The position numbers and the translations under genes are program-made. A stretch of DNA of 64,000 nt. It comes from a virus. Below are positions 1 to 53,691 of the stretch, in pieces. Position 1 is the first letter of the stretch. Every line of letters starts with the position of its first letter. The stretch spans positions 1 through 64,000 of the IMG/VR virus record IMGVR_UViG_3300021185_003351; one strand, written 5' to 3'. Under the pieces are notes generated by a model. The model was not told where the DNA came from. It searched no databases and saw only the letters and a program-made list of their open reading frames with translations.

Positions 1-102
1 ATGAGTGGGACAATTGGTGGCCTAACGAGGATCTATAATAAGTATGACCTGTAAGGGCGTACTAACGTACTAACCTTATATTTATATATAAAAGAAAAAA
101 TC

Positions 103-651
103 ATGATTAAATTAAAATCACTATTATCGGAAAAATATTTAGGATTTGGGTTTGGTGCTGGTAAAGTTAAAGAACAACAACTCCCTGATGCATCTATGAC
201 AGATCTAGCACAAGGATTAGATAGAGATCCAATGACAGGTAATCCAATACCTGGTGGAGCTGGCGGTACTGTTAACTTAAATTACAAAGAAGTACAATTA
301 GATCAATTGAAATTTGATGATCTTGTAAAAATGTTTAGAGTTAAAGATTATTATAATGATGTTCATTTTAATAGAATGCAGCCAGACGGCAAAGAAGGCC
401 CGTATTATAAAGACGGATTAAGTTTTCCTAATCCAAATGATACATCATCAATTGTTGCAGATATGAAGTCATTAGAAAATTGGAAAGAAAGAACCAAACG
501 AAGATTTGGCAATGTCAAAGTAATATTAGATCCAGATGCGGAAGAACATTGGGAAAAGGTTAAAATTGAAGATGATAAATTTTCCCAAGATAAACAAGAT
601 GCTGATGCTGCAAAAATGGATACGTTAAAACAATGGGGAACTACAGAATGA
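103..651 (+). CDS. Hypothetical protein with MIKLKSLLSE leader (putative internal head/cargo protein)
   Basis: 182 aa ORF; ATATTTAT motif at 78-85; N-terminal leader shared with at least 7 other ORFs. Confidence 0.75.
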   Translation: MIKLKSLLSEKYLGFGFGAGKVKEQQLPDASMTDLAQGLDRDPMTGNPIPGGAGGTVNLNYKEVQLDQLKFDDLVKMFRVKDYYNDVHFNRMQPDGKEGPYYKDGLSFPNPNDTSSIVADMKSLENWKERTKRRFGNVKVILDPDAEEHWEKVKIEDDKFSQDKQDADAAKMDTLKQWGTTE

Positions 652-791
652 ATTGGATAAATAGCTGGAAAGCCTACAATAAAAAAAGTATATTCGAAAT
701 TAATATTAGAATAGGTACATTAACTATACTAGAAATAGTAACAGCTCCTAAAGTAAAAATAATGATATTAAACTTTGGAGTAGAACTATGA
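648..791 (+). CDS. Small hypothetical protein, 47 aa (MNWINSWKAYNKK...LNFGVEL); not in the ORF track
   Basis: Translated by hand; ATGA overlaps at both ends fill the gap exactly. Confidence 0.7.
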   Translation: MNWINSWKAYNKKSIFEINIRIGTLTILEIVTAPKVKIMILNFGVEL

Positions 792-1255
792 TTAAGCTTA
801 AAGACATATTAATAGAACGAAAACTTAAACCAGAAGATGTTAAGATTATTCATAAAGAAACTAATCATTACAAACTAAGTGATACAGACGGTTTTAATAA
901 TCTGAAAATTGGTAATAACATAAGTTCTACCGAAAATCATTATAAAGGAGGAGAAAGTAATAAAGTATATGGTAGAGTAGCAGACAATTCTATACAGTTT
1001 GATTTTGATAGTATAGTAGCAGCTGGTAGTGATATCACAAACGTTGCCCTAGAATTTACAAATACTACAAATACTACAACGAAAAAAATAACTTTTTATG
1101 AAGTAAAACTTAATGTTACTTATAAAAATAGTGGAGTAAGGACCCTAGGCTCTGCTAGAACTAATATTACAATATCTAATTTGCCACGTGGCTATTATCA
1201 GTTAAGTAATAATAGAGATCCTAATAATTGGTTAAGTTTTATAGTTGATAAATGA
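788..1255 (+). CDS. Hypothetical protein with MIKLKDILIE leader
   Basis: 155 aa ORF, ATGA-coupled, leader motif. Confidence 0.75.
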   Translation: MIKLKDILIERKLKPEDVKIIHKETNHYKLSDTDGFNNLKIGNNISSTENHYKGGESNKVYGRVADNSIQFDFDSIVAAGSDITNVALEFTNTTNTTTKKITFYEVKLNVTYKNSGVRTLGSARTNITISNLPRGYYQLSNNRDPNNWLSFIVDK

Positions 1256-1767
1256 TTAAATTAAAAGACATATTAATAGAACAAATAGGATTCCAAATTC
1301 CAGGAACTCCTAAACAAAAAAATATTGGTCGTAAAACACGTCAGGAATTTGCTAAGTTTTTCAATAACTTTGAAGCAGGTAATACAAAAACTGCTATATC
1401 AGGGTATGCTGAGCAAATAATGAATTCAGATGCGCCTGATGAAGTAAAACAAAATGCATCTGAAATATTAAATGAAATGGAGAAAGTAGCAATAGATATC
1501 CAAGACGAATTACATACAAGACAAATAAGCGACGACGAAGTTGCTGAAACAATATTTGATTATGTTAATTCTGAAATGGATGCTTCCGATTCAATTGAAT
1601 TTGAACAATTATTATGGTATGACAATCAAATTGATTCGAGTATCAACTCCGGAATGATAGAAAATGCTGTTGCTATACTGGACCAGTTACTTCATCAATT
1701 AGAATTCATACGTGGTTTTATCTTACAAGAATTTCCAAAAATCTCTCCTGCAGGATTTAAAAGATAA
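1252..1767 (+). CDS. Hypothetical acidic helical protein with MIKLKDILIE leader
   Basis: 171 aa ORF, leader motif. Confidence 0.75.
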   Translation: MIKLKDILIEQIGFQIPGTPKQKNIGRKTRQEFAKFFNNFEAGNTKTAISGYAEQIMNSDAPDEVKQNASEILNEMEKVAIDIQDELHTRQISDDEVAETIFDYVNSEMDASDSIEFEQLLWYDNQIDSSINSGMIENAVAILDQLLHQLEFIRGFILQEFPKISPAGFKR

Positions 1768-1790
1768 AACTAATCTAGAAACATAACATT

Positions 1791-1931
1791 ATGAAACATA
1801 CAAGGTTTACTACTATCCTTACATACATACTGTGCGGGAAGTGCAAAAATAAATGGTTTACTAAAGGATATTTTGTTAATGAAACATGTCCAAAGTGTAA
1901 ACATGAAGATACAACTATGAATTCATTATAA
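1791..1931 (+). CDS. Small Zn-ribbon protein, 46 aa; not in the ORF track
   Basis: MKHTRFTTILTYILCGKCKNKWFTKGYFVNETCPKCKHEDTTMNSL contains two CxxC pairs. Confidence 0.6.
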   Translation: MKHTRFTTILTYILCGKCKNKWFTKGYFVNETCPKCKHEDTTMNSL

Positions 1932-1947
1932 GTAATATTTATATAAA

Positions 1948-2505
1948 ATGATCAAACTCAAAGACATATTATTAAGTGAAGGTACCCGTTGCTGGAAAGG
2001 ATTTGAGAAAAAAGGCACCAAAGAAAAATACGGAAAACGTGTTCCTAATTGTGTTAAAAAAGAATCTAAATTACCTGACGAAGGATTTTCAGATCCAGAC
2101 CAAATGAGAATGTATGAAAAAGACATTGACGAAGACTTAAGACGATGGGCAAAAGAAAAATGGACAGATCAGAATGGAAATCCATGTGGTAGCTCTAAAT
2201 CTAAAGGAGTAGTTAAATGTCGTCCATCTAAAAAAGTTTCTAAAAAAAGTCCAAAGACTTGGAGTCAAGTTGATAAGAAAAAAGAAGTTGCTAAAAAGCG
2301 TAGAGTTGGAATGGGTAAGCGAACTAAAAAAGCTGAAGTCATAACTCCTATAGAAGAGAAAAAGAAAAAAGCTAAAAGAGATGCTTGTTATCATAAAGTA
2401 AAATCTAGGTATGATGTATGGCCGTCTGCTCGAGCGTCTCAAGCTCTAGTTAAATGCAGAAAAAAAGGCGCTAAGAATTGGGGTAAAACTACTACCAAAA
2501 AATGA
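1948..2505 (+). CDS. Highly basic Cys-containing modular protein with MIKLKDILLSE leader (DUF5872-like motifs)
   Basis: Modules CWKG...VPNCV, LRRWAKEKW...PCG...KCRPSKKVS and DACYHKVKSRY.VWPSA, recalled from T4-like phage and giant-virus proteins. Confidence 0.65.
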   Translation: MIKLKDILLSEGTRCWKGFEKKGTKEKYGKRVPNCVKKESKLPDEGFSDPDQMRMYEKDIDEDLRRWAKEKWTDQNGNPCGSSKSKGVVKCRPSKKVSKKSPKTWSQVDKKKEVAKKRRVGMGKRTKKAEVITPIEEKKKKAKRDACYHKVKSRYDVWPSARASQALVKCRKKGAKNWGKTTTKK

Positions 2506-3569
2506 TTAAGCTTAAAAATATATTAACCGAATCAATAGTAGGAAACAAAATTGTATGTGATAATTGCAATTGGAGTTGGGATATAAAAGATGGCGGAGAT
2601 GATTTATATATGTGTCACAAATGTGGACATAACAATACTCCTAAGTTAACAGAACAATCATCTAAAATTACAAATTTATTTATTGGTCAGCCTAATCAAG
2701 AAAATTGGAATCAAACAAACATAGAAAAGTGGCAGACAAAAGGCGAAAAATATTTATCTTCTTTTCTTAAAAAAATAGGAGCAATCGACATAGTAGTAAC
2801 TAATAATATGAGTACTTCAGCTGTTACTAATGAGATTAAAAAATTAGCAATAGCTGGTGCATTAGTTTCCGGAAAATTAGAATCTGTTACCATAGTATCT
2901 CATCGTACTGGGTGTGGTAGATTTAATTATGGTATAATGTATAGTTCTGGCGGAGGTGCTGCTACAGAATTTTGGAAAGTGTTATCTCAATATTGCAATT
3001 CTAATACAAAAATATTTCTGGGAGGATGTAGTGTAGCTGAAGATCCAAGTATAATTGCCAAAATATCTAAAATTACTAATTGTACAGTAACAGCTCCAAC
3101 CGGAACATATTTTCCAGGAATAGAATTAGTTACTACTGATGATAATAAATTTAATATATCTAAACGAGTTGGAAAATATATTACTTGTACAAATAATCCG
3201 TCAGGCGATAAAAAATATGAAAATTTTATAAACAAACATAAACAAAGTTTATTTGCTGATTCAAAATATTATTATAAGATTAGTCGTAAATTACAAACAA
3301 TTACAAAATTTCATGATGAGTTGAACTATATATCCCCAAAAAATTTATATAATTTAAGACGACGTATTTTTACTCCCCCTTTAGAAGGCCCACCTCCAGC
3401 GTATCGATATTTAAAAGATGATGCATATAAAAAAGAAATAAATAATTTAATGGATACATTAATAGAAACAATGACTGTTAAACTAATTCAAGATTATATT
3501 AAATCTATAGGATGTGTTCCAACTAAAACAAATCCTATACAAGGAACAAGAAGTGCAATATTCAAATGA
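2502..3569 (+). CDS. Leader + Zn ribbon + DUF4347-like (caspase/hemoglobinase-fold) protein
   Basis: CDNC...CHKC, followed by VTIVSH, IFLGGCSVA and ISKITNCTVTAPTG. Confidence 0.55.
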   Translation: MIKLKNILTESIVGNKIVCDNCNWSWDIKDGGDDLYMCHKCGHNNTPKLTEQSSKITNLFIGQPNQENWNQTNIEKWQTKGEKYLSSFLKKIGAIDIVVTNNMSTSAVTNEIKKLAIAGALVSGKLESVTIVSHRTGCGRFNYGIMYSSGGGAATEFWKVLSQYCNSNTKIFLGGCSVAEDPSIIAKISKITNCTVTAPTGTYFPGIELVTTDDNKFNISKRVGKYITCTNNPSGDKKYENFINKHKQSLFADSKYYYKISRKLQTITKFHDELNYISPKNLYNLRRRIFTPPLEGPPPAYRYLKDDAYKKEINNLMDTLIETMTVKLIQDYIKSIGCVPTKTNPIQGTRSAIFK

Positions 3570-3862
3570 TTAAACTAGAAAATATATTAAAAAGCATTCC
3601 TAATCAAGAAATAGTTGAATCACATCTTGGACAATGGGAATATCCTGGTAGAATAACAAGAATACCAAATAATCAAATTACAATGCAACCTGATCCTAGA
3701 ACAGGCAAGGAAATAGAACATATATTATTAATAATAGGAGATCAAAGCGGCGAAAAACAAATAGGAGTTCCAAATGGACCAAATTTATTATTTCCCAATG
3801 ATCAATCAGTTACAGAATATCCAATAAGAAAATATGAAGTTTATAAAAGTCGTAAAAAATAA
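3566..3862 (+). CDS. Hypothetical protein with MIKLENILKS leader
   Basis: 98 aa; GQWEYPG...ITMQ...LFP...VTEYP domain. Confidence 0.65.
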   Translation: MIKLENILKSIPNQEIVESHLGQWEYPGRITRIPNNQITMQPDPRTGKEIEHILLIIGDQSGEKQIGVPNGPNLLFPNDQSVTEYPIRKYEVYKSRKK

Positions 3863-4016
3863 TAATTCTGCAGAGTATATAAATACTAATCATATAACAT
3901 CATTTTATAGTGGTGATAATTCAGAAATAACAATTGTAAAGTTAAAAACTAGCAGACGAATTCATATACAAGAACATGTAGATATATTTGCAGACAGAAT
4001 TTCCATGGAAAAGTAA
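3834..4016 (+). CDS. Small FlbD-like beta protein
   Basis: YINTNHI...TIVKLKTSRRIHIQEHVD.FADRI pattern resembles the FlbD family. Confidence 0.4.
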   Translation: MKFIKVVKNNNSAEYINTNHITSFYSGDNSEITIVKLKTSRRIHIQEHVDIFADRISMEK

Positions 4017-4054
4017 TAATACAATATTTATATTAAATAATAAAGGTATATAAT

Positions 4055-4240
4055 ATGACATCGATAGAAATATATATGAAAATTGAGGATCAATGGGATA
4101 TATTTATGGAAAATCATGTAAGATTTAATGATAAAAAAGTAAAAGCAGCAGGTGTTAGAGCAAGAAAAGCTATTGGTGAGATAAAAAAATTAGCTTCGCA
4201 ATACAGAACTGCTTGTTTAGCTGAATCAAAAGAGATATGA
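4055..4240 (+). CDS. Histone H1-like Hc1-family DNA-binding protein (Bacteroidota type)
   Basis: KAAGVRARKA...KKL...YR signature; ATATTTAT at 4024-4031. Confidence 0.75.
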   Translation: MTSIEIYMKIEDQWDIFMENHVRFNDKKVKAAGVRARKAIGEIKKLASQYRTACLAESKEI

Positions 4241-4950
4241 ACGAGTCAATATTAAGAAATATTATACGAGAACATCTATTAGAAAGCTTGTCTGAGCAAA
4301 CAATTGAAACAACATTGTTTTCACCAGAAGAAGAAAAGTTTCTTGCTACATTCACAAAGCTAGGAGCAACTAGTTTAGGCATATTATATGCTAAAAATAT
4401 GATAGGAATCCGGGAATTTCTTAATAGAAGCGGTAAGGATTTCAACTTAACGCCTCCTGTATTGAATAGTTTGCTAAGAAATAAGACAATTTCCATAGTT
4501 CCTTATGGTGGATACTCCAGAAACAATGATTATACCATTCAATTGAATATACCTTTAAAGGATTTAGAAGGAATTAAAGAACCAGAAGGCGATGATGCTG
4601 CAGGCGGTGCACCAGAACCAGCAGTAGCTGAAGAAAGTGTTCAAATATTAGCTCGAAATATAGTGTCAGAAGCAAAAAAATCAAAAAAAAAGAAAAAAAG
4701 TAAGGTTTATACCGGCAAATCAAGAACATTGAAGCGGTTACCAAGCGGATACGTAGGATATTTAGAGAAAATTATCCAAGTTTTAGGCGAAAAAGTGAAA
4801 AATGACATGGAAAAGGAGCATTTGGTTGCAGATATCCTTGATAACCTATCTCATAACTTTGGTTTAACACCTAAACAAGTATATCGTTCTTATATTTATT
4901 ATAAATCGCAAAATAGATTGGCAAATATCATCAAGGATAACAATGATTAA
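4237..4950 (+). CDS. Hypothetical protein, putative head-associated (ILRNIIREHLLE leader)
   Basis: 237 aa ORF with several L/I-x-E sites and a poly-K tract. Confidence 0.65.
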   Translation: MNESILRNIIREHLLESLSEQTIETTLFSPEEEKFLATFTKLGATSLGILYAKNMIGIREFLNRSGKDFNLTPPVLNSLLRNKTISIVPYGGYSRNNDYTIQLNIPLKDLEGIKEPEGDDAAGGAPEPAVAEESVQILARNIVSEAKKSKKKKKSKVYTGKSRTLKRLPSGYVGYLEKIIQVLGEKVKNDMEKEHLVADILDNLSHNFGLTPKQVYRSYIYYKSQNRLANIIKDNND

Positions 4951-6148
4951 ATTAAAAGACTTATTAACAGAGCAAAATAATTATACTAAAACTATATTTG
5001 ATTGGCTGAATAAATTTAAGCCAGATTTTATGAAAAATTCAGCTAAAATGGGATTTCTTCCATCTTCAAATTATGCAATTAATCAATTAGAAGGTCCTTC
5101 TGGCAAGAAAGATGGAATTGTATCTGTTATAAATTATGTAGTAGGCCTAGACGTCTTTTTTAATACCAGAACTGGAGACGCACAACCTAAATTAAAAAAT
5201 AATAAAAAACAACTAGCATCATCAATATCACGAAATACTATAGTATTAAATAAAAGCAATAATGTATATTTTGATTTTACGCCAGCTGGAAGAGGACCTA
5301 CTGTAGCAGTCGATAGGCAACAATTTATGAATAAAAGTACAACGTGGTATCCAAATGGAAAATATTTTGGAAACTCTGTTACAACTATGGTTGGAAGTAT
5401 TAATCAAATAAATCAAGTCCACTTTCGAACAAAAAGACCTCAAGTTATATTTATTGCTCCAGCTGATAAACCAGTTAACGGAGTTTCATATAATAAAATA
5501 ACAATGGGTACATCTGATAAACTTCATTTATATAGTACAAGAGACGTTGCTACTACAAAAGTTCCTGGTACAAAAGCTACTCCAGATAAAGTAATAAAAA
5601 AACCAGGTCAACAGTTTCCTCCATTACCGGTCCCTGATAGTAACTTCCAATCTAACTCAGCACAATTAACACCGACTGCTCTAAGAAATGTAACAGCTTT
5701 AATTACTCAAAGAATACAACAAATGAGAGAAGCTGGTATAACAATTCCAGCTGGAATAGGTACAATTGTAATAAATTCTGGTACTGATAGTATGCCGACT
5801 GGTAGAGCCGGAGGAAATCCACAATTAGCAGCAGATAGAGGTGCTACTCTTCAAGCATTATTAGAAGCACAAGGTATTCCTCGAGGTCAAATTCGTATAA
5901 ATACTAGAGGATTTGTTAACGCAGTACCTGCAGGTACTACTAGTTGGGCAAATAAACCAGCTTCTCAAACAAGACTCCAATGGCAACAAGCAGCTGCACC
6001 AGCACGAATGGTTCAAATGACATTTCCGTCTGTGCAAGCGCCTGATGAAGAAGAAATAATAAAAGGTAAGAAAGGTACTCCTCCAAAAGAAGTAGATACT
6101 CCTAAAAAAGTAACAATTAATCATTTAGAAGTATTTATTAAAAAATAA
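4943..6148 (+). CDS. Leader-bearing protein with a C-terminal OmpA-like peptidoglycan-binding domain
   Basis: MIKLKDLLTE; FQSNSAQL...SGTD...NPQLAADRGATLQALLEAQGIP..QI...RG matches OmpA_C motifs. Confidence 0.7.
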   Translation: MIKLKDLLTEQNNYTKTIFDWLNKFKPDFMKNSAKMGFLPSSNYAINQLEGPSGKKDGIVSVINYVVGLDVFFNTRTGDAQPKLKNNKKQLASSISRNTIVLNKSNNVYFDFTPAGRGPTVAVDRQQFMNKSTTWYPNGKYFGNSVTTMVGSINQINQVHFRTKRPQVIFIAPADKPVNGVSYNKITMGTSDKLHLYSTRDVATTKVPGTKATPDKVIKKPGQQFPPLPVPDSNFQSNSAQLTPTALRNVTALITQRIQQMREAGITIPAGIGTIVINSGTDSMPTGRAGGNPQLAADRGATLQALLEAQGIPRGQIRINTRGFVNAVPAGTTSWANKPASQTRLQWQQAAAPARMVQMTFPSVQAPDEEEIIKGKKGTPPKEVDTPKKVTINHLEVFIKK

Positions 6149-6195: not shown

Positions 6196-6705
6196 ATGAA
6201 AAAGTTATTGATATTATTATTACTTCCCATCACAATATTTTCACAAGAAAATTATTATGATACTACGATTGCTAGATTAATCAATGAAAAAATTAATGAA
6301 TATCGCATAAGCAAAGGTCTTTACAATTTAATTCAAACAGATAGATATAAAAGTGAGACAGAACAGTACTGTGCTAAAGCTGCACAAAAGATAACAGAAA
6401 CAAGAATAATTGAACATTCGTCTTTATTTTTTCCTGGTAAATGGAGCGAAATTATTTGTTCTGTTCCTTTTAATGGAGCCGAAATGAGTGCTGATTCATT
6501 AGCAAATGAAGTTGTTGATGCATATATAAATTCTAGACCACATCATGTTGCAATATTGAGTATTGGAGTTACAAAAATACACACATCTGTATACATATAT
6601 TATAATCCCAAACAAAAGATGTGGAAATTATTTACAGCATCTCATATTATGGATTGGGAATATGAATTCAATGTACAATATAGTTCGATTAAATTGGAAT
6701 ATTGA
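6196..6705 (+). CDS. Secreted CAP (SCP/PR-1) domain protein
   Basis: Signal peptide MKKLLILLLLPITIFS; INEYRISKGL, EHS, SEII, AYINSRPHHVAIL. Confidence 0.75.
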   Translation: MKKLLILLLLPITIFSQENYYDTTIARLINEKINEYRISKGLYNLIQTDRYKSETEQYCAKAAQKITETRIIEHSSLFFPGKWSEIICSVPFNGAEMSADSLANEVVDAYINSRPHHVAILSIGVTKIHTSVYIYYNPKQKMWKLFTASHIMDWEYEFNVQYSSIKLEY

Positions 6706-6762: not shown

Positions 6763-6933
6763 ATGGCAACATCACAAGAATTATTCGATCAGATAAAAAA
6801 TTTATTTGTAGAATTTGAAGAAAATCACAATGGTTCAACTAAAGCTGCTAAAGGCAGAGCAAGAAAAGCTATTGGAGAAGTAAAAAAGTTAGTGACTGAA
6901 TATAGAAAGCAGTCTGTAGCAGAAAATAAATAA
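6763..6933 (+). CDS. Second Hc1-like histone protein, 56 aa; not in the ORF track
   Basis: MATSQELFDQIKNLFVEFEENHNGSTKAAKGRARKAIGEVKKLVTEYRKQSVAENK; paralog of 4055..4240. Confidence 0.8.
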   Translation: MATSQELFDQIKNLFVEFEENHNGSTKAAKGRARKAIGEVKKLVTEYRKQSVAENK

Positions 6934-15654: not shown

Positions 15655-16119
15655 ATGGAACAATCAAAATTTATCAAAACTTTAAGAAAAGTTATACAAG
15701 AAGAAATACGTTCTGTTATAAAACAAGAATTAACAGAAATATTGCAAGAAGGATTAAAATCTACAATATCTACGATTTCAGAAGAAAAACAAGTTACAAA
15801 CACAAAACATATGCCTGTTAAAACATCTAAGAATAAAGTTAATTTTAAAGAAACAAAATTTGCAGATATATTAAATGAGACAACAAAATTAACAGATCAT
15901 AAGAGTGCTAGTGATTATAAAGATTTAATGACAGAAGATATAGTAATGACATCAGCTGATGCTCAAGGATTTGGAATGCAAAGAAATATTCATCAAACAG
16001 CGGTAATGACAGATCCAGAATCCGGTAAGTCGTTAAAAGTAGATCCTACAATACAAAAAGCAATGACACGAGATTATTCTGCATTGATGAAAGCAATTGA
16101 TAATAAAAAGAAAAGGTAA
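15655..16119 (+). CDS. Hypothetical protein (LRKVIQEEI...ILQE leader)
   Basis: 154 aa; late motif at 15631-15638. Confidence 0.65.
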   Translation: MEQSKFIKTLRKVIQEEIRSVIKQELTEILQEGLKSTISTISEEKQVTNTKHMPVKTSKNKVNFKETKFADILNETTKLTDHKSASDYKDLMTEDIVMTSADAQGFGMQRNIHQTAVMTDPESGKSLKVDPTIQKAMTRDYSALMKAIDNKKKR

Positions 16120-26976: not shown

Positions 26977-28557
26977 ATGTCAGATATCACAGAATATACT
27001 GGTGAATCAGTAAAAGCGTTTAAAAAAGTTAATCCTACTGATTTAAAATTTACTCCAATGCAATTAAACAAAACGTTTTATATGTATTCTGGAAGTACTT
27101 TGTTATATACTCCTTTAAATGCTTATTATTGTACTAGTATACCAGAAAATCATTTAAATTGGGGTGAACAGAATTTAAACGGTACATATAAATCAATTAT
27201 TTATAAATCATTACAACAATTATTTTATAATGAATCATTTGATACAGAAATATTTTTACATCAAACATCATCTATTTTTAGTATTCCTCAAAAGAAGATG
27301 GGACAAAAAATTAAAGAAAATTCATTTACATATAATAGTTCATCATTAAATTTAAAATCAAATCGTTCTGGAAAAATATATGATGTAAATGTTAACACCG
27401 GATCTTTTCCAAATACATTAAATTTTTATGAAGGATTTAATAAGTATTTTGATTCTTCGAATATTACATATGAATCTCAAAATATTTTATATGTTGATGG
27501 GGTAACTACTAATACTGGAAATCAAAAGTCTATAGGATTATCAGCATTATTTTCCGGAAATGGTTATATATCATCTAGTTTAGAAGGAATATATGATAAA
27601 CAACATAATTATGCAATATCATTTTTTATATCAGGAACAAATAGTACAAATAATGATCAATTGATATTAACAAAAGCAGATCAAATAACTAGAAGTCCGT
27701 GTCCTTTTAATATCGAATTAAGTGGAAGTAATGAAATTAAATTTAGTATACGTGGTAATAATTCTAATTTAATTGCGTTAATAACATCTTCTGCAGATGT
27801 ATCGTCATCTTGGACTCATGTATTATGTCAAAAGACTGGTAGTAGTATTGAAATGTATATTAATGGAACTAAACATTCATCCGGTAGTTTTAATTTTCTT
27901 CAAGACAATTTAAATACATATGTAAATTCTCCAACATTTATTAATAACAATTATCATTTAAGTATTGGGGGTTATAACACAAATAGTTATAATCTACAAG
28001 GATATTTAGATGAAGTTAGGATTTATAACAAAGCTTTAACAAACTCTGAGATAAGCACGTTAACGGACCGTAATGAAGGTGGAGGATTATTACAAACAAA
28101 TATAGTTGGTAATGTATTTTCAGAAAAAGGATTTATTGTTATATCAACTCCTGATTATCGATACAATGACTTAATAACTACAAAATATACTGCTAGTTAT
28201 CAAAGTACAATTACATCATATGAAATGTCAACATTATGTCGTATAGATGCAGGTGATTTCAATGTTACAAATAATCATAGTGCACATAATGATTCGAATA
28301 TACAATATTTAAACTATTTAACAGGTAGTGATTTTGCTCCATATATTACATCGGTAGGATTATATAATTCAGCTGGTACGTTATTAGCAATTGGAAAATT
28401 AGGACAACCAATAAGAAAACGTGATGATGTTGATATGAATGTTTTAGTTAGAATGGATTTAGACATTAGACCTATTAATTCTGGATCAAGTTTAGAAAGT
28501 ACAAATCAAAATTTTAATATAAATAATTCTAAAACAATAGGAGGATTATCATATTGA
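26977..28557 (+). CDS. LamG (concanavalin-like) domain tail protein; C-terminus paralogous to 25817..26926
   Basis: WTHV...MYING...GYLDEVRIYNKALT; YITSVGLYN..LLAIGKLGQPI. Confidence 0.7.
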   Translation: MSDITEYTGESVKAFKKVNPTDLKFTPMQLNKTFYMYSGSTLLYTPLNAYYCTSIPENHLNWGEQNLNGTYKSIIYKSLQQLFYNESFDTEIFLHQTSSIFSIPQKKMGQKIKENSFTYNSSSLNLKSNRSGKIYDVNVNTGSFPNTLNFYEGFNKYFDSSNITYESQNILYVDGVTTNTGNQKSIGLSALFSGNGYISSSLEGIYDKQHNYAISFFISGTNSTNNDQLILTKADQITRSPCPFNIELSGSNEIKFSIRGNNSNLIALITSSADVSSSWTHVLCQKTGSSIEMYINGTKHSSGSFNFLQDNLNTYVNSPTFINNNYHLSIGGYNTNSYNLQGYLDEVRIYNKALTNSEISTLTDRNEGGGLLQTNIVGNVFSEKGFIVISTPDYRYNDLITTKYTASYQSTITSYEMSTLCRIDAGDFNVTNNHSAHNDSNIQYLNYLTGSDFAPYITSVGLYNSAGTLLAIGKLGQPIRKRDDVDMNVLVRMDLDIRPINSGSSLESTNQNFNINNSKTIGGLSY

Positions 28558-29099
28558 TTAAGTTAAAAAATATATTAAAAGAAATTTCTGAATCTGATGC
28601 TGAAAAATTATTAAATAAAATTAAAAATAAAGAATTTTCATTTGTAGCACAAGGTGATAATGGCAAAGTGTATGCAATAAATGGAGAAGATTTATTATTT
28701 AAAATAACCACTGAACCAGATGAAAAAGCAGTAGCTGATGTTATTGTTGGTAGATCTAGTGAATTTAACTCATTTATTCCTGTACATTATTCAGATCCAA
28801 AGCGTAGTATGTATATTATGAATAAAGCAAATCCATTATCATCAAAAGAAGAAATAGAAATAAATAAATTTTATAAAGGTTATAAAAATTTTTTAAGACA
28901 AGCTGGACCAGAAGCTTCTGTATTTGATTATTTAGACACAGAAGAAACAAGAAGTTATTCCATGGAATTAATTAATTTTATGCGAGCGTTACAGCAACAT
29001 GTTAGAAAAACAAATATAGGCGATTTACATTTATCATTAGATTTCAAGCCAGATAATATTATGAAATGGAATGGTAATTTAGTAATGGTCGATTGGTAG
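28554..29099 (+). CDS. Minimal protein-kinase-like enzyme with MIKLKNILKE leader (TTG start)
   Basis: AQGDNGKVY Gly loop, LFK, PDE, LDFKPDNIM catalytic loop, terminal VDW; SD AGGAGG at 28539-28544. Confidence 0.75.
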   Translation: MIKLKNILKEISESDAEKLLNKIKNKEFSFVAQGDNGKVYAINGEDLLFKITTEPDEKAVADVIVGRSSEFNSFIPVHYSDPKRSMYIMNKANPLSSKEEIEINKFYKGYKNFLRQAGPEASVFDYLDTEETRSYSMELINFMRALQQHVRKTNIGDLHLSLDFKPDNIMKWNGNLVMVDW

Positions 29100-44205: not shown

Positions 44206-45786
44206 GTGAGTAACAAGCAAAACATAAAAAAAATAATACAGGAGCAATATAAAAAATGTGCTCAAGATCCTGTTTATTTTATGCGTCAATATTGCTATAT
44301 TCAACATCCAATTAAAGGTAAAATAAAATTTAATTTATTTCCATTTCAAGAAGAATCATTAACTACATTACAAAAAAATCGATATAATGTAATTCTAAAA
44401 TCTAGACAATTAGGTATATCAACATTATCTGCAGGGTATGCATTGTGGTCAATGTTATTCAATGAAGATTTTAATGTATTAGTAATTGCAACAACTCAGG
44501 ACGTTGCAAAAAATTTAGTAAGTAAAGTTCAAATAATGAACGAAAACTTACCTAGTTGGTTAAAAACAAATATAGTTACTAATAATAAATTATCATTAAA
44601 ATTTGCAAATGGATCAGAAATTAAAGCAATATCAAGTTCTTCTACAGGTGCACGTTCTGAAGCATTATCATTATTAATAGTCGACGAAGCTGCATTTATT
44701 AGAAACATTGAAGAAATTTGGGTAGCATCTCAAGCAACATTATCTACTGGAGGTGGAGCTATTGTATTATCTACTCCTAATGGAATTGGTAATTGGTTTC
44801 ATCAAACATGGGCTGATGCTGAAACTGGAGTAAATGGCTTTGAAACAATTAAACTAGATTGGAAATTACATCCAGAACGAAATCAATCGTGGAGAGACGA
44901 ACAAACACAATTATTAGGAGAAAGAGGAGCAGCACAGGAATGTGATTGTGATTTTATATCTTCCGGTCATACCGTTGTAGATGGATTAATATTACAAAAA
45001 TATGAATCTAAATGCGAAGAGCCTGTAGAAAAAAGAGGATTTGATAACGGATATTGGATATGGGAATATCCAAATTATGAAAAAAATTATATTATTGTAG
45101 CTGATGTTGCTAGAGGTGATGGCGCAGATTGGTCGACATTTCATGTTATCGACGTAGAAACAATAAATCAAGTTGCAGAATATAAAGGTAAATTACCTCC
45201 AAAAGATTTTGGAAATATGTTAGTAACTATTGCAACTGAATGGAATAATGCGTTGTTAGCAATTGAAAATGCAAATATAGGATGGGCTGCAATACAACCA
45301 GCATTAGATAGAGGATACCAAAATTTATTTTATACATATAAAGATGATGGATATGTAGATTTAGAGGTTCAACTATTAAAAGGATATGATCAAAAAGATA
45401 AAACAAAAATGGTACCAGGTGTTTCAACTACTTCAAGAACCAGACCATTAATGATATCTGCATTAGAAATGTATATGAGAGAAGGCTCTCCTATAATACG
45501 TTCAAAAAGATTAATTCAAGAATTATTTGTATTTGTGTGGTTAAATGGTAAAGCACAAGCACAAGTTGGATATAATGACGATTTAGTAATGGCGTATGCT
45601 ATTGCGTTATGGTTACGAGATACTAGTTTAAAATTAAGACAACATGGAATTGAATTAAATAAAAGAGCATTATCACAATTTCAAAAATCAGATAATATAG
45701 TTTATACTAATAAAAATAAATCACAAAGTGAAGACTGGGATTGGAATAACGGTCGAGACAATGAAAATTTAACCTGGCTTCTGTAG
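44206..45786 (+). CDS. gp17: Terminase large subunit (GTG start)
   Basis: LKSRQLGIS Walker A region, LIVDEAAF Walker B, STPNG, ADVARG, NDDLVMA. Confidence 0.95.
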   Translation: MSNKQNIKKIIQEQYKKCAQDPVYFMRQYCYIQHPIKGKIKFNLFPFQEESLTTLQKNRYNVILKSRQLGISTLSAGYALWSMLFNEDFNVLVIATTQDVAKNLVSKVQIMNENLPSWLKTNIVTNNKLSLKFANGSEIKAISSSSTGARSEALSLLIVDEAAFIRNIEEIWVASQATLSTGGGAIVLSTPNGIGNWFHQTWADAETGVNGFETIKLDWKLHPERNQSWRDEQTQLLGERGAAQECDCDFISSGHTVVDGLILQKYESKCEEPVEKRGFDNGYWIWEYPNYEKNYIIVADVARGDGADWSTFHVIDVETINQVAEYKGKLPPKDFGNMLVTIATEWNNALLAIENANIGWAAIQPALDRGYQNLFYTYKDDGYVDLEVQLLKGYDQKDKTKMVPGVSTTSRTRPLMISALEMYMREGSPIIRSKRLIQELFVFVWLNGKAQAQVGYNDDLVMAYAIALWLRDTSLKLRQHGIELNKRALSQFQKSDNIVYTNKNKSQSEDWDWNNGRDNENLTWLL

Positions 45787-47687: not shown

Positions 47688-48539
47688 ATGAAAACTCTTA
47701 AACATTCAAAATATAAAAATACTGCTATTCTTTTTGAGATGTTAGTAAGGAAACTTACATCGGAAACATTGACGTCAGATAAAACAATTACAGTTGAAAT
47801 TATTAAAAAGTATTTTGGTAAAAATACAGTATTATCAAAAGAGCTACAATTATATAATTCTTTAATAAAAGAATCATTTAAAACTGAAGCTCAATCATTA
47901 GAATTTATTAGAAGTTGTAAAGAAGCTCATACTAAATTAAATAAAAGTTCATTACGTAGACAACGTTATAATTTAGTGAAAGAAATATCAGAAAATTTTG
48001 ATTTTCAAAAAGTTTCTAAAATACGTATAAATAATTATAAAGAATTAGCATCTATATATAAAATATTTGAATATTCTAATTCTGATAATCCTAAGGATTT
48101 ATTGGAATGTAAAACTGTTATCGTTGAACATATATTAAATGATAGTAATACGTCAACTAAAAAAGATGTTGTATTAGAAACATATAAAAAACACGATAAA
48201 GAAGTTAGAATGTTAGCATATAAATTATTAGTTGATAAATTTAATTCAAAATATTCATCTTTAAACGAAAATCAGAAACAAGTTTTAAATCAATATATAA
48301 CTCACGTTAATGACACTGAATCTTTAAAATTATATTTAGAAGGTATATTACCAAATATTAAATTACAACTAAAAGAACAAGTATTAAAAATTCAAGACCC
48401 AGTTACAAAAATAAAAGTTGATAAACTTTCTGATATGTTATGTAATGTTAAAACAATAAAAGTAGTTAAAGAGTCTCATATTTTGTCAATATTAAGATAT
48501 TTTGATTTAATTAAAGAACTAAAACAGGTAAACAAATGA
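47688..48539 (+). CDS. Conserved head-module hypothetical protein
   Basis: KHSKYKNTAILFE start; lies between portal and protease; late motif at 47659-47666. Confidence 0.65.
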   Translation: MKTLKHSKYKNTAILFEMLVRKLTSETLTSDKTITVEIIKKYFGKNTVLSKELQLYNSLIKESFKTEAQSLEFIRSCKEAHTKLNKSSLRRQRYNLVKEISENFDFQKVSKIRINNYKELASIYKIFEYSNSDNPKDLLECKTVIVEHILNDSNTSTKKDVVLETYKKHDKEVRMLAYKLLVDKFNSKYSSLNENQKQVLNQYITHVNDTESLKLYLEGILPNIKLQLKEQVLKIQDPVTKIKVDKLSDMLCNVKTIKVVKESHILSILRYFDLIKELKQVNK

Positions 48540-49237
48540 AGTCATTTTTACACGAAATAGAATCTAAATTTACACGTCTTCAAGAAAAAGATTGGGACGG
48601 TGATGGAAAAGAAGAATCTCCAAATGATGAATATATGGGAGTTAAAGACAAAGCTATTAAAAAAGCAATGAAGAAAGAAAACTCTAAGCCAGATTTTTTA
48701 GATTTAGATAATGACAATGATACTGAAGAGTCTATGAAGCAAGCAGCCAAACAAGCAAATGAAGTCATAAAAACAAATGATCCAGATGCTGCAGCAGACA
48801 TGCAAAAAAAGAATCCTAATGTAGATATTGAATTAACAGAAGATGAACTTGGCGAACAAAATGTAACTGGTGCAATTGCTGGATATCAAACCCCAAATGC
48901 ATTTTCAACAAAAGCTCAAGCAAAAAAGAAAAAGAATATGAAATATGAATCTGTACAAAAAGCTATGGATACAAAATATGAAGCTATGATTGAATCATAT
49001 TCTAAATTTGCAACTGGTAATCCAAAGTCTACACCATCACAAACAGTAAATGGTACCATTAAAGAAGTTGCAAAAAAATTACAAGAGATAGAACAAATAG
49101 TTAAATATACATCTAAATTAAAGACCGAATCTGGTATAGCTGGATCGTCATATGGAAAATCTACTCATACAGCATTAAATAAAATTTCAGAAAGATTATT
49201 AAAAATATCTGAACGTGTAAGAAGCTTAGGAGAATAA
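48536..49237 (+). CDS. Putative prohead core/internal protein with DxDxDG-like motifs
   Basis: DWDGDGKEE, DLDNDNDTEE; AGYQTPNAF. Confidence 0.55.
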   Translation: MKSFLHEIESKFTRLQEKDWDGDGKEESPNDEYMGVKDKAIKKAMKKENSKPDFLDLDNDNDTEESMKQAAKQANEVIKTNDPDAAADMQKKNPNVDIELTEDELGEQNVTGAIAGYQTPNAFSTKAQAKKKKNMKYESVQKAMDTKYEAMIESYSKFATGNPKSTPSQTVNGTIKEVAKKLQEIEQIVKYTSKLKTESGIAGSSYGKSTHTALNKISERLLKISERVRSLGE

Positions 49238-49238
49238 T

Positions 49239-49865
49239 ATGAATAAAAATTTATTAGTAGAATATATTCCATTTAAACCAATAGGGCCAATTAATGAACA
49301 AATGGCTAATAAATTTGGAGTTCCAGGTGGGTTAGTAGTACAAGGCGTTTTACAAAGAGCTGGAGCTAAAAATCAAAATGGACGTGTTTATCCTAAAAAT
49401 ATATTAGATAGAGAAGCTAAAAAATATCAACAAGAATATATTAGTCAAAACAGAGCGTTAGGCGAATTAGATCATCCAGAATCATCAGTTGTTAATTTAA
49501 ACAATGTATCTCACAATGTTTTAAAAATGTGGTGGCAGAATAACGATTTAATGGGAGCTGTACAAATATTAGAAACCCCAGCTGGTAAAATATTAAAGTC
49601 GCTATTTGATGCTGGTATTACATTAGGAATATCTAGTAGAGGATTAGGATCAGTAAAAGAATTATATAAAGAGTCTGCAGTTGAAGTTCAAGAAGATTTT
49701 GAATTAATTTGTTTTGACTTTGTTTCAAATCCGTCTACCCATGGCGCATTTTTAAAACCAATGAATGAATCAATTAATAAAAATACAAAACAAAATTATA
49801 AAAAAGTAAATGATATTATTACATCAATTTTATGTGATAGTGGAAAATGTAGGATTTTACCATGA
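49239..49865 (+). CDS. gp21: Prohead core protease
   Basis: NQNGRVYP, ALGELDHP, VSH, GISSRGLGS, DFVSNPS. Confidence 0.95.
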   Translation: MNKNLLVEYIPFKPIGPINEQMANKFGVPGGLVVQGVLQRAGAKNQNGRVYPKNILDREAKKYQQEYISQNRALGELDHPESSVVNLNNVSHNVLKMWWQNNDLMGAVQILETPAGKILKSLFDAGITLGISSRGLGSVKELYKESAVEVQEDFELICFDFVSNPSTHGAFLKPMNESINKNTKQNYKKVNDIITSILCDSGKCRILP

Positions 49866-50227
49866 GAATAAAAGATTTATTAGAAGCATTAGATAGAGAG
49901 CAAGTTGAAATACCAAAAGAGAAAAAACGTGAATTTGTAGAAGCAGTAAGAAATTACTCTCAATTAGGCGAATCAGTATATGGTAAAGGTGATCTTAAAG
50001 AATTATGTCAAAAGATACACTATATGGTAGAAATGGCTCAACAAGTAACATTGTCTGAAGGCGATTGGTTTGATGGTATTACTGTTAATAGACACATGAA
50101 AGGACTTAACGAATCATATAAAGTATTTGAAAAGACTGCTCAAGAAATATCTAGACTACAAGAAAGACTATCTGCATCATATGAAGATATTGGTCAAGGA
50201 TTAAGTAAATATTTTGATATAAAATAA
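49862..50227 (+). CDS. Hypothetical protein with MRIKDLLE leader-like start
   Basis: 121 aa in the head module. Confidence 0.65.
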   Translation: MRIKDLLEALDREQVEIPKEKKREFVEAVRNYSQLGESVYGKGDLKELCQKIHYMVEMAQQVTLSEGDWFDGITVNRHMKGLNESYKVFEKTAQEISRLQERLSASYEDIGQGLSKYFDIK

Positions 50228-51002: not shown

Positions 51003-52022
51003 ATGGACGGAAAATCGGACTTACTAAAAGAAGCGATCGCTGACGCAAAAGCCGTAAAGGAAACTGCATTAGCAAACGCTAAAATAGCTCTTGAAGAGGC
51101 TTTTGCCCCTAGAATTGAAGCAATGCTATCAACAAAACTTTCTGAAGATTTATATGAAGACGAAATGGAAGACGAAGTACCAGCGCCAGTAGCCGATACA
51201 CCAGTTGAAGAACATGACGTTATGTATGAGCCTGAAGTAGAAGGTGGAGAGATGGATGCTGCCCCTGCACCAGAAATGGATGCCGAAATTGATATGGATA
51301 TGCCTGCTGAAGAACCAGTAGTTGCAGATGACATGGAAATGGAAGGTATGATGGATGATGCACCAGTAGACACAGACAGCGTTGAAGAAGATCTAGAACT
51401 AGAAGCAATCATAAGAGAGTTAGAAGAAGATTTAAATGAAGAAGAACTAACTGAAGAAGATATCTTTGAATCAAATGATTCTACAGATTTAACTGAAGAG
51501 GATAAAATGGTCGACGACAAAAAAGAAACCAATGAAGAATTCAATATTGATGAAATCATTGAAGGTATTTTGTCTGAAGACGAAGAAGAAAAAGACTCTA
51601 AAGAAAAAGTAGAAGAAGAAAAAGAAGAAGATGAATCTAAAGAAAAAGTAGAAGAAATGACTGAAGAATTAACTGAAGCATATGATACTATTGAATCTTT
51701 AAGAGGCACAATCAACGAAGTTAATCTTTTAAATGCAAAACTTTTATATACTAACAAATTATTTAGGAATTTTGAATTATCAGAAAGTCAAAAAATGACT
51801 GTTATCGAAAATTTCGATAGAGCTGGTAATACAAGAGAAGTTAAACTCGTATTTAGTACATTAGCAGAAAATTTTACAGTTCCTGTAAAAAAGAGAAAAG
51901 TAGTTAAAGAAGGCACTGCCTCTAAAGCAATTAACTCTACTGCTCCTGCAACTAAAACAATAATCAACGAAGGTAATGAATTAGCTAACAGATGGAAGAA
52001 GTTAGCAGGATTACTAAGTTAA
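51003..52022 (+). CDS. gp22: Prohead scaffolding/core protein
   Basis: Very acidic, many L-x-E sites, directly upstream of MCP; SD AAGGAG. Confidence 0.8.
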   Translation: MDGKSDLLKEAIADAKAVKETALANAKIALEEAFAPRIEAMLSTKLSEDLYEDEMEDEVPAPVADTPVEEHDVMYEPEVEGGEMDAAPAPEMDAEIDMDMPAEEPVVADDMEMEGMMDDAPVDTDSVEEDLELEAIIRELEEDLNEEELTEEDIFESNDSTDLTEEDKMVDDKKETNEEFNIDEIIEGILSEDEEEKDSKEKVEEEKEEDESKEKVEEMTEELTEAYDTIESLRGTINEVNLLNAKLLYTNKLFRNFELSESQKMTVIENFDRAGNTREVKLVFSTLAENFTVPVKKRKVVKEGTASKAINSTAPATKTIINEGNELANRWKKLAGLLS

Positions 52023-52047: not shown

Positions 52048-53691
52048 ATGAAAATTTCATCTTTACTAGAAGACAATAATCCTTCCCAAAGAAATGCAGC
52101 GTTAAAAACTGTAACAAAATGGGAAAAGACAGGTCTTCTAGAAGGTTTAAAAACCGAAACAGAAAAAGCAGGTATGGCTCAGCTTCTTGAAAATCAAGCT
52201 AGACAACTTGTAAAAGAAGCATCATCAACTGGTACTACTGAAGGATCAGAAGAATGGGCTGGTGTAGCTTTACCATTGGTAAGAAGAATCTTTGCTGAAT
52301 TTGCAGCAAAAGAATTTGTTTCTGTACAACCAATGAATTTACCATCTGGACTAGTATTTTATTTAGATTTCAAATATGGAACTGAAAAAGCTGGATTTGA
52401 TGGTGATAATTTAAATGTAGCTGGCGATCCTTTTGGATCACCAAATGCTGACGATTCCATGTTTGGTGTAACAACTACTGCAGGAGATCCAACTGGTGGT
52501 CTTTATGGTGCTGGTAGATTTGGTTACTCACTCAATGATGTAGCAGTTACTGCTTCAGCTGTTGTTTCAGCAGCATCATCTGCATCTGTAAATTACGATT
52601 CATCATTTACTGGCAATAAATTATCTGAATATAACGTAGTAACTGTACCGTTAACATCGTTATCAGGTTCAGATTCAACTGCAGTTAGATCATTTATTAT
52701 CGAAACTGGATCTGGTACAATTGTGCAACATTCTGCATTTACAAAATTAAATGCTGCAAAAACTCATGTTGAGTTTTTAGTATCTGGATCAGCTGCATCA
52801 ATGACTGGTGTTGAATACATTGTTAAATTTAGTGAGCAACCAACTGACATCTCTAGAGGCGACTTTGAAGATTCAAATCCTTTTAAAGGTTCTGGTGCTG
52901 GTACTGGTATCAATAATGGTACTGATATTGACATTCCTGAAGTTAACTTAGAAATGCAATCAGATCCAATCGTAGCTAAGACTAGAAAGTTAAAAGCTGT
53001 TTGGACTCCTGAATTTGCACAAGATTTAAATGCATATCATTCAATTGACGCTGAAGCTGAATTAACTTCAATGTTAAGTGAATATGTATCAATGGAAATT
53101 GATCTTGAAATTCTAGATATGTTAATCAATGGTGCATTAACAACTGAATATTGGTCAGCTCAATCTAATCAATTCTTGAACGCAGCTGGTACAGCTTTTG
53201 AAGGAAGAGATGTTTCTGCAGGCGGATATTATAATACACAAGGAGAGTGGTTCCAAACTTTAGGAACTAAACTTCAAAAAGTATCTAACAAAATTCATCA
53301 AAAAACACTTAGAGGTGGTGCTAATTTCTTAGTTACTTCACCTGCTGTTGCAACTATCCTAGAATCTATTCCTGGATTTGCTGCTGACACAGATGGTAAC
53401 AAAATGGAATTTGCTGCTGGTGTTCAAAAAATTGGTGCAATCAATAATAGATACACAGTATATAAGAATCCATATATGAAAGAGAACGTAATCCTTATGG
53501 GTTATAGAGGAGCACAATTCCTTGAAACTGGTGCAGTATATGCTCCATACGTACCTTTAATTATGACTCCACTAGTATACGATCCTGTTAATTTCACCCC
53601 AAGAAAAGGTGTAATGACAAGATATGCTAAGAAAATGGTAAGACCAGAATTCTACGGTAAAGTATATGTTGCTGGATTAGACACTATTTAA
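52048..53691 (+). CDS. gp23: Major capsid protein (T4 gp23-like)
   Basis: VQPMNLPSGLVFYL, AKTRKLKAVWTPEFAQDL, YAPYVPL, PRKGVMTRY. Confidence 0.97.
   Translation: MKISSLLEDNNPSQRNAALKTVTKWEKTGLLEGLKTETEKAGMAQLLENQARQLVKEASSTGTTEGSEEWAGVALPLVRRIFAEFAAKEFVSVQPMNLPSGLVFYLDFKYGTEKAGFDGDNLNVAGDPFGSPNADDSMFGVTTTAGDPTGGLYGAGRFGYSLNDVAVTASAVVSAASSASVNYDSSFTGNKLSEYNVVTVPLTSLSGSDSTAVRSFIIETGSGTIVQHSAFTKLNAAKTHVEFLVSGSAASMTGVEYIVKFSEQPTDISRGDFEDSNPFKGSGAGTGINNGTDIDIPEVNLEMQSDPIVAKTRKLKAVWTPEFAQDLNAYHSIDAEAELTSMLSEYVSMEIDLEILDMLINGALTTEYWSAQSNQFLNAAGTAFEGRDVSAGGYYNTQGEWFQTLGTKLQKVSNKIHQKTLRGGANFLVTSPAVATILESIPGFAADTDGNKMEFAAGVQKIGAINNRYTVYKNPYMKENVILMGYRGAQFLETGAVYAPYVPLIMTPLVYDPVNFTPRKGVMTRYAKKMVRPEFYGKVYVAGLDTI

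Follow-up and report, generated by a model that had tools for sequence, protein, structure and literature searches.

The window analyzed here covers the first 64 kb of the 172,973-bp genome of a marine T4-like phage (IMG/VR virus record IMGVR_UViG_3300021185_003351, positions 1 to 64,000), which has a GC content of about 29% and carries nearly all of its genes on the plus strand. At its start lies a cluster of genes whose products begin with one ten-residue leader, MIKLKx[I/L]LxE, a candidate capsid-targeting sequence (CTS) of the kind found on the internal proteins of phage T4. A preliminary description of this DNA had listed eight open reading frames (ORFs) with the leader by position and N-terminal peptide, and all eight are indeed present with these positions and peptides. 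These leader genes, called cargo genes in the following, are all on the plus strand. The first cargo unit (103-1767) is headed by the virion-gene ("late"-type) promoter motif TATTTATATA at 79..88 and contains genes of 182 aa (103..651, MIKLKSLLSE), 155 aa (788..1255, MIKLKDILIE) and 171 aa (1252..1767, MIKLKDILIE; acidic body). The three bodies have no family assignment, and the first [LI]xE of the 103 protein ends at residue 10; this is the motif after which the T4 prohead protease gp21 cleaves (PMC9026906).

The second cargo unit (1948-6148) is headed by the same promoter motif at 1936..1945. It starts with a gene of 185 aa (1948..2505), whose leader MIKLKDILLSE has its Glu at residue 11 and whose body, with a net charge of +34, matches DUF5872 and phrog_727. 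This is followed by a 355-aa gene (2502..3569, MIKLKNILTE), in which a CxxC...CxxC zinc-ribbon cassette at residues 11-51, ending in KLTE, precedes a body with His134 and Cys176, and by a 98-aa gene (3566..3862) with the variant leader MIKLENILKS, which has no Glu10 and in which the first I-V-E ends at residue 18. The last gene of the unit encodes 401 aa (4943..6148, MIKLKDLLTE) and has a C-terminal OmpA-like peptidoglycan-binding domain and no signal peptide or transmembrane (TM) segment. The eighth listed ORF lies far from the cluster, at the end of a virion-gene unit: a conserved 181-aa cargo gene with kinase-like motifs (28554..29099, (M)IKLKNILKE), which uses a TTG start that overlaps the stop codon of the upstream gene.

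When the whole genome was searched in six frames, the pattern IKL[KE]x[IL]L occurred 11 times and all 11 occurrences were at a start codon, compared to the 0.43 expected from codon shuffles. They represent 10 distinct genes, as the match at 172939 is the terminal-overlap copy of 103. The end of the record (172837-172973) repeats its start (1-137), which indicates that the assembly is circularly permuted or terminally redundant and places the cargo cluster immediately downstream of the sigma-factor-like and AAA-like genes found at the record end. Beyond the window, canonical leader genes are found at 97328 and 146797, and divergent leaders stand beside the latter (MNKLKNILKD at 147807 and MILLKNILNE at 148420), giving 10 canonical and 2 divergent genes in the genome.

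The leader had been described as a short peptide placed on unrelated payloads, and the comparison of the bodies agreed with this, the best pairwise E value being 0.048. The DNA identity between copies was 75% in codons 1-10 compared to 30-34% in the 30 nt on either side, and the similarity begins at the ATG and ends after codon 10. The reported synonymous variation of the leader codons is real. Among 133 environmental copies, the relative use of synonymous codons for I2, K3, L4, L8, and E10 matched that in the gene bodies, and for Leu this also held for the choice between TTA and CTN. The sharp boundary of codons 1-10 and the ordinary synonymous usage support the earlier proposal that selection acts on the peptide rather than on a DNA repeat; since leader and body codon usage are equal, a DNA repeat or an RNA-level start enhancer can be set aside as the explanation.

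Viral contigs were then scanned with the back-translated leader, which yielded at least 143 copies in at least 120 contigs of 25-47% GC. The preliminary description had predicted N-terminal-only matches with variable payloads in other genomes, and the scan agreed with this: 129 of the 143 listed matches (90%) head an ORF of at least 60 aa. For a cellular comparison, the same pattern was searched in 596 Gb of prokaryote genomes. Only single matches were obtained there, and among the 120 listed, 18 (15%) head an ORF of at least 60 aa while 87 fall into short random frames. With most cellular matches being of this kind, the leader was rejected as a general N-terminal motif of cells. At least 18 viral loci carry two to four leader copies in a row. 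Moreover, 106 of the 120 listed viral loci have further genes in common with this phage, indicating that the tag belongs to one large phage clade, the hosts of which are probably Bacteroidota. The complete relatives have 4-9 leader copies each, and a reversed control pattern gave 0. The closest cultured relatives by identity of the major capsid protein (MCP) are Flavobacterium phage immuto (57%) and Microcystis phage Mel-JY01 (55%), the latter with a cluster of four leader genes at 60.3-62.8 kb; Rhodothermus phage RM378 is more distant. When cultured phages were searched for DNA nearly identical to the head region, no match was obtained. Three contigs filed under bacterial metagenome-assembled genomes (MAGs), for example as "Gammaproteobacteria", also carry canonical leader ORFs or homologs of 29768 and 30700 (L187, L231, and L244); one of them, L231, has two canonical leader ORFs in tandem. 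They are probably phage contigs binned into MAGs.

The residue pattern of the leader was evaluated with an unbiased sample of 98 N-terminal ORFs, chosen on residues 1-8 only with fixed codons and without a Glu codon; the scan was extended past the range of the first one and thus involved no enrichment for Glu10. Residue 4 is L in at least 90% of copies. At residue 7, 55 of the 98 ORFs have L and 39 have I (94 with either), and 95 have L at residue 8. Glu occupies residue 10 in 81 (83%), and in most of the others a Glu stands at 9, 11, or 12 instead. There is no constraint on residues 6 and 9, the former being hydrophilic, and residue 11 marks the end of conservation. For the packaging of T4 IPIII, its first 10 residues are enough, and mutagenesis assigned residues 4 and 7 to targeting and residues 8 and 10 to processing (PMC9026906). 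The T4-CTS-like architecture proposed for the leader, in which positions 4, 7, and 8 are hydrophobic and position 10 is Glu, thus holds as a sequence pattern.

The leader peptide is amphipathic. In the two AlphaFold cargo models (2502 and 4943), it forms a detached, low-confidence N-terminal segment with helical propensity. A Sec, Tat, or lipoprotein signal peptide was considered and rejected, the leader being 10 residues long with K3, K5, D/N6, and E10. The maximal 12-residue hydropathy in the first 36 residues of the cargo proteins is at most 1.07, and no hydrophobic segment of the signal-peptide or TM type was found in any cargo protein of the genome.

The bodies behind the tag turn over quickly. 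The 126 listed environmental tagged proteins fall into 82 body families with 64 singletons, and a homolog in this genome exists for only 16 of them. MIKLKD[L/I][L/I]xE is retained by 12 of the 13 members of the 4943 family, even where body identity has fallen to 33%. The conserved body of the 2502 family begins with Q-x-S-x-ITDLFIGQ... and is preceded by three upstream arrangements, all of which end in [I/L]-x-E↓ at one joint (the arrow marks the joint or cleavage position). In the first, the leader stands alone; in the second, it is followed by the zinc-ribbon cassette, which ends in KL[T/K]E. The third, seen in a single distant member, is another N-terminus (MKIKLTESQFKRIILSE), whose final ILSE↓ coincides with this joint. 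The cassette is inserted exactly between two [I/L]xE↓ joints, so that the cassette and module boundaries of this family fall exactly at [I/L]-x-E. As only the tag is needed, genes and modules would be swappable behind it, resulting in a fast-turning repertoire.

Two modules of the tagged proteins also occur in other settings. The zinc ribbon (CDNC...CHKC, window 2532-2654) is a mobile module: the unit of leader and ribbon is found on several different bodies, and the ribbon also occurs inside leaderless nucleotidyltransferase-like proteins of 480-610 aa, named in some sources as phosphopantetheine or nicotinate-mononucleotide adenylyltransferases. The N-termini of these proteins resemble that of window gene 39711, which itself has no cassette. 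A search for the 2502 cassette elsewhere in this genome found no other copy. The second module is a 116-aa basic protein with a Cys-rich C-terminus, encoded at 153561-153911 of the genome (L147:7562-7909) and leaderless here. It is the C-terminal domain of five tagged proteins in other contigs, has homologs in 26 of the 120 listed leader loci, and has no Pfam family. The idea that this domain is joined upstream at [LI]xE was rejected, as there is no consistent joint.

The window also contains a T4-type head module on the plus strand, with the large terminase at 44206 and the portal at 45821. The gp21 homolog that had been placed at 49239 was confirmed as a prohead protease of the T4 gp21 family (49239..49865; Peptidase_S77, PF03420, Pfam E 8.9e-33), and it matches the T4 gp21 structure 5jbl with an E value of 2e-20. 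His79 and Ser132 are invariant in 18 proteases of the clade and align to two Ala positions of the crystallised T4 chain, which suggests that these positions are the mutated catalytic pair and that His79 and Ser132 are catalytic. Judged from its sequence, the 49239 protease looks active. An S77 protease is also encoded by both complete leader-bearing relatives. The structure of a complex between the S77 protease and the first 60 residues of a 28554-family cargo was predicted with a score of 0.00, which, obtained without controls, is informative neither way.

The content of [LI]xE motifs in the head proteins was judged against composition-preserving shuffles. Between portal and protease, two genes of 283 and 233 aa (47688..49237) encode candidate prohead-core proteins, and both are enriched (9 motifs compared to 4.5 expected, P 0.014, and 9 compared to 2.4, P<0.002). 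So are the conserved 121-aa head-module protein at 49862..50227 (6 compared to 2.3) and the putative scaffold at 51003..52022 (18 compared to 9.1, P<0.002), while the portal and the terminase (TerL) are not enriched relative to shuffles. The MCP (52048..53691; gp23-like, phrog_138 E 4e-72) aligns with mature gp23* only from about residue 61 and has a propeptide of about 55 residues with conserved protease-type sites, which in four phages read ...EKTG-LLE↓G, [L/I][L/I]E↓NQA, and, near residue 55, [L/I/V]-x-E↓[A/T]. This is the pattern that would be expected if the clade protease keeps the T4 specificity. In the cargo bodies, avoidance of [LI]xE was looked for and rejected (z = -0.4), and there is no enrichment either.

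Two head-module proteins had been noted for N-termini similar to the leader. For 49862, which carries the degenerate form MRIKDLLE, the similarity was substantiated by its homologs, which carry the canonical leader; for the MCP (MKISSLLE) it is weaker, with L-L-E at residues 6-8. Homologs of 49862, the gene just downstream of the protease, are present in 61 of 78 protease loci, and nearly all start with variants of the leader core, such as MKLKKILKE, MKLKNILNE, MSKKIKLKDLLEE, MATKLKDLLTE, MIKLKELLNE, and ...NLKFILET. These variants indicate that the tag is constitutive on a head-assembly protein, and the variable genes bear its canonical form. The putative scaffold, an acidic protein of 339 aa taken as the gp22 analogue, starts with MDGKSDLLKE, in which L7, L8, and E10 are in register with the leader. 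The N-termini of scaffold and MCP themselves thus appear to resemble the C-terminal half of the tag.

Genes of this module recur in the genomic neighbourhood of leader genes. The commonest neighbour of a leader gene is the protease (28 of the 120 listed loci), followed by the 283-aa gene, the terminase, the portal, 49862, the scaffold, and the MCP; the 283- and 233-aa genes are neighbours in 27 and 18 of these loci, respectively. In several loci, including ones with homologs of 97328 of this genome, a leader gene abuts the protease gene, and in one relative (G002) five leader genes stand in a row between the protease and the bS21, scaffold, and MCP genes.

Leader genes also share a promoter motif with the portal, tail, and other virion genes. 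The motif ATATTTATAT occurs 23 times in forward and 2 times in reverse orientation in the genome, 12-45 nt before the starts of structural and cargo units. In the form ATATTTAT(A), it precedes the virion units of the portal gene, 47688, 26977, 33820, 57335, and 60840 as well as the cargo units at 103, 1948, 97328, and 147807, and the other leader genes lie inside such units. An equal frequency of the leader on early cytoplasmic proteins, which had been named as an argument against head targeting, was not observed, as every leader gene is in a unit headed by the virion-gene motif. These motif-headed units would presumably be expressed late.

The payload identities suggested previously were only partly upheld. 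The OmpA-like domain of 4943 was recovered by Foldseek with a probability of 1.0 and an E value of 2.6e-4 to OmpA, MotB, and Pal domains, with target TM scores of 0.63-0.70. PF00691 is annotated on 8 of 13 homologs (precomputed), and the window protein itself stays below the Pfam cut-off (20.8 compared to 27.2 bits). For a peptidoglycan binder without an export signal, ejection from the virion is the obvious route to the cell wall. The 1948 product is as basic as had been claimed and is a candidate DNA binder. In the putative kinase 28554, the motifs GDNGxVY, LFKIT, DFKxDN, and IDW are invariant in 4 members, and an atlas cluster with Phage_T7_kinase in 17% of its members provides one lead; a significant family match is absent, with no Pfam match at E values up to 5 and twitchin kinase as the best PDB profile match at E 0.14. 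The caspase fold suggested for 2502 is likewise a weak candidate. His134 and Cys176 are invariant and there is a weak resemblance to clan CD (C11/caspase-like), with Z scores of 5.3-6.0 to C11 proteases and 7.5 to a type VI secretion system (T6SS) effector (model pLDDT 68.7, moderate), but caspase-11, MALT1, and CHAT were matched by Foldseek at weak E values of 0.04-0.06 and no match reached E <= 0.001. In PHROGs and Pfam, most cargo proteins, the scaffold, and the core candidates have no family. The tagged proteins of the relatives include, by Pfam, ADP-ribosyltransferases, Zeta-toxin/AAA_33 kinases, NUDIX, RNase_T, HD, and ATP-grasp proteins, and a cell-wall hydrolase.

Several further genes were observed in and around the cargo units. 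The gene at 4237..4950 (plus strand) lies in the second cargo unit, has another N-terminus, MNESILRNIIREHLLESLSE, with three [LI]xE sites, and is a candidate for a second leader class. A second recurrent N-terminal motif, approximately [L/F][K/R]x[I/V][I/V][K/R/Q]E... followed by [LI]xE sites, with MKKSQLREIIRKEL as a further example, was seen at 4237-4296 and 15655-15740 of the window, at 81525, 102880, and 113188 of immuto, at 162463 of Mel-JY01, at 10816 of L126 (G002), and at 10310 of L128 (G001). It is carried by 1-3 genes per genome, including head-module genes and one cargo-unit gene here. In immuto it is the sole kind seen. The N-terminus of P0067, a body homolog of 2502, is similar. 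This motif may represent a second leader class. Two small paralogous genes, at 4055-4240 (61 aa) inside the cargo unit and at 6763-6933 (56 aa) just after it, have a basic ...KAAGxRARKAIGE[I/V]KKL...YR... segment in common. Directly after the cluster, the gene at 6196-6705 encodes 169 aa and, unlike the leader genes, specifies a hydrophobic signal peptide of the classical type (MKKLLILLLLPITIFSQ).

Taken together, we consider it likely that MIKLKx[I/L]LxE is a T4-type capsid-targeting propeptide, removed by the prohead protease, on a rapidly changing set of head-packaged proteins. By analogy with T4, we infer that the tagged proteins are packaged, lose the leader, are retained in the head, and are injected. 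The cargo genes would be transcribed together with the virion genes. The amphipathic N-terminal peptide would then give the products affinity for the prohead core (scaffold, core proteins, and protease), and they would be enclosed as the gp23-like shell forms. The 49239 S77 protease would cut after Glu10 at [L/I]8-x-E10, as it would in trimming the MCP propeptide and chopping the scaffold, and the mature cargo would stay in the head with the DNA and probably exit through the tail at infection.

Several observations weigh against this reading. About 17% of the leader copies lack Glu10, including 3566 in this genome, and the leader resembles the T4 CTS in its residue pattern alone, with no further sequence similarity. 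The scaffold assignment of 51003 is based on position and composition alone, with no family match. Since [LI]xE is no rarer in the cargo bodies than expected, the mature proteins would have to be protected by their folding. Among the closest 80 protease loci, a leader gene lies within 10 kb in 5 (strict) to 12 (loose), so embedding in the head module is a minority arrangement, and the canonical copies of this genome are 20-100 kb from the protease. Immuto has the S77 protease context and 57% MCP identity, yet essentially no MIKLK genes, which indicates that the tag is not obligatory for this head type. Finally, the literature search found no virion proteome for the leader-bearing relatives.

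Whether the tagged proteins are injected effectors rather than accessories of the core is about evenly balanced. One alternative, to which we assign a small but real probability, is that the leader is an assembly and cleavage propeptide of the prohead core and that the tagged proteins are mostly accessory core or scaffold parts, which are degraded, expelled, or organise the DNA and do not act on the host. The 49862 family is consistent with this: it is encoded beside the protease and has an excess of [LI]xE, in which it recalls gp67 and gp68, two T4 core proteins that are cut to pieces (PMC9026906). Furthermore, no enzyme fold could be recognised in several of the cargo proteins, which are small, and the basic protein of charge +34 could merely neutralise DNA. 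However, many tagged proteins in relatives belong to host-directed enzyme classes (ADP-ribosyltransferase, kinases, nucleases, cell-wall hydrolase), and it is not obvious what a peptidoglycan-binding domain would do inside a head. The cargo bodies are not enriched in cleavage motifs, and the extreme turnover (82 families among 126 listed proteins, with 64 singletons) is more in keeping with an arms-race repertoire than with structural components.

It is less probable still that the leader is an address or regulatory tag for a target other than the capsid and that its [L/I]-x-E is coincidental. In this case it could, for example, serve tail or baseplate assembly, attach proteins to membranes as an amphipathic helix, or act as a signal for degradation or for chaperones. 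The location of 28554 at the end of a tail-region virion operon and the distance of most canonical leader genes from the head module would suit such a target, and so would an amphipathic peptide on proteins whose localisation is putative. But a Glu10 present in 83% of copies, with conservation ending right there, is what a cleavage site would produce and not a membrane helix, and no cargo has a hydrophobic segment of the signal-peptide or TM type. The module joints at [I/L]xE↓, the constitutive tag variants on the protease-adjacent protein, and the array between protease and scaffold genes in G002 also argue for the capsid. Very improbable, finally, is an element acting at the nucleic-acid level with an incidental peptide, either an A/T-rich enhancer of translation starts in hosts that do not use Shine-Dalgarno sequences or a homology box for cassette exchange. 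The leader DNA is indeed A/T-rich (ATGATTAAATTAAAA...), the 788 and 1252 copies are nearly identical in DNA, and cassettes clearly exchange behind the leader. Against this, the synonymous codons at I2, K3, L4, L8, and E10 follow body proportions and the same amino-acid sequence is found in contigs of 25-47% GC. The MCP and the scaffold, as the most highly expressed virion genes, use another start, and 30 nt at about 75% identity are a poor substrate for homologous recombination.

The T4 tag, as known from IPIII and IPII, is MKTYQEFIAE. The CTS system of IPI, IPII, IPIII, and Alt, with its processing by gp21, was reportedly the subject of work by Mullaney and Black in 1996 and is covered by two reviews (PMC9026906, PMC3012670). 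The system described here is like that of T4 in that a 10-residue N-terminal peptide with hydrophobic residues at 4, 7, and 8 and Glu at 10 is common to otherwise unrelated proteins, and in that this phage has a homologous S77 protease, portal, and capsid protein. Very basic cargo proteins are present here as well, and ADP-ribosyltransferases like Alt occur in the relatives. In contrast to T4, the tag sequence is MIKLKxLLxE, about 12 tagged genes are spread over several loci compared to 3-4, and the tag is near-invariant over a large, deeply diverged environmental clade (MCP identity about 55%). In addition, internal cassettes are joined at the cleavage motif here, and this system is known from sequence alone. 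That T-even internal proteins are diverse proteins with only the CTS in common was described previously (PMC3012670), and the idea itself is therefore not new. The polymorphic ip loci of T2, T6, and relatives encode other CTS-bearing basic proteins (PMC9026906 ref. 69, PMC3012670). They are comparable as hypervariable genes behind a constant CTS, read as an arms-race repertoire (e.g., IPI* against GmrSD), but they comprise few small basic proteins in close relatives of one enterobacterial phage, whereas enzymes and binding domains are found here, in phages probably of Bacteroidota and in many aquatic metagenomes.

The ejection and inner-body proteins of phiKZ, 201phi2-1, and SPN3US are processed by gp21-like proteases (PMC5694885). 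They resemble the tagged proteins in being packaged in the head and processed, with N-terminal propeptides thought to target the prohead, cleavage after the Glu of a three-residue motif, and paralogs with conserved N-termini. Their propeptides, however, are mostly at least 100 residues long, the motif is S/A/G-x-E, and processing was seen by mass spectrometry, whereas the tag here is a 10-residue T4-style peptide with predicted processing. The encapsulin cargo-loading peptide is also short, portable, and sufficient to load unrelated proteins into an HK97-fold shell. Unlike the leader, it is usually C-terminal, binds the shell protein directly, and is not removed, and encapsulins involve no protease, DNA, or delivery to another cell; the two systems are not homologous. 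In the literature search, the leader was mentioned in no paper found, only unrelated vaccine-design papers were matched, and no paper on Mel-JY01 came up. The new elements are the tag sequence, its near-invariance over a deep clade, the number and diversity of tagged genes, the tag on a conserved head-module protein, and the cassette joints at the cleavage motif.

A broader form of the proposal is that one near-invariant tag is a universal capsid address in a very large clade of aquatic T4-like phages, so that any ORF starting with MIKLKxLLxE would be packaged, released by the protease, and injected, with modules swapping at [I/L]-x-E. We give this form an even chance of being correct. Proteins injected by phages act before any phage gene is expressed and are prime candidates for first-line counter-defence and host takeover; so far they have been identified in only a few model phages, as their detection depends on virion proteomics. 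If the tag works like the T4 CTS, it would be a sequence key to at least 82 unrelated families from uncultured aquatic phages, mostly without an assigned function, and each tagged protein would be predicted to be in the head and to start at residue 11. If the universal address is true, the "injectome" of uncultured phages, with its anti-defence, takeover, and cell-wall effectors, could be listed from genome data. Furthermore, the loading principle of T4, hydrophobic residues at 4, 7, and 8 with Glu at 10, would have been kept over deep divergence while the tag sequence changed, which bears on how such tags are recognised and on the loading of foreign proteins into other phage heads, as done in T4.

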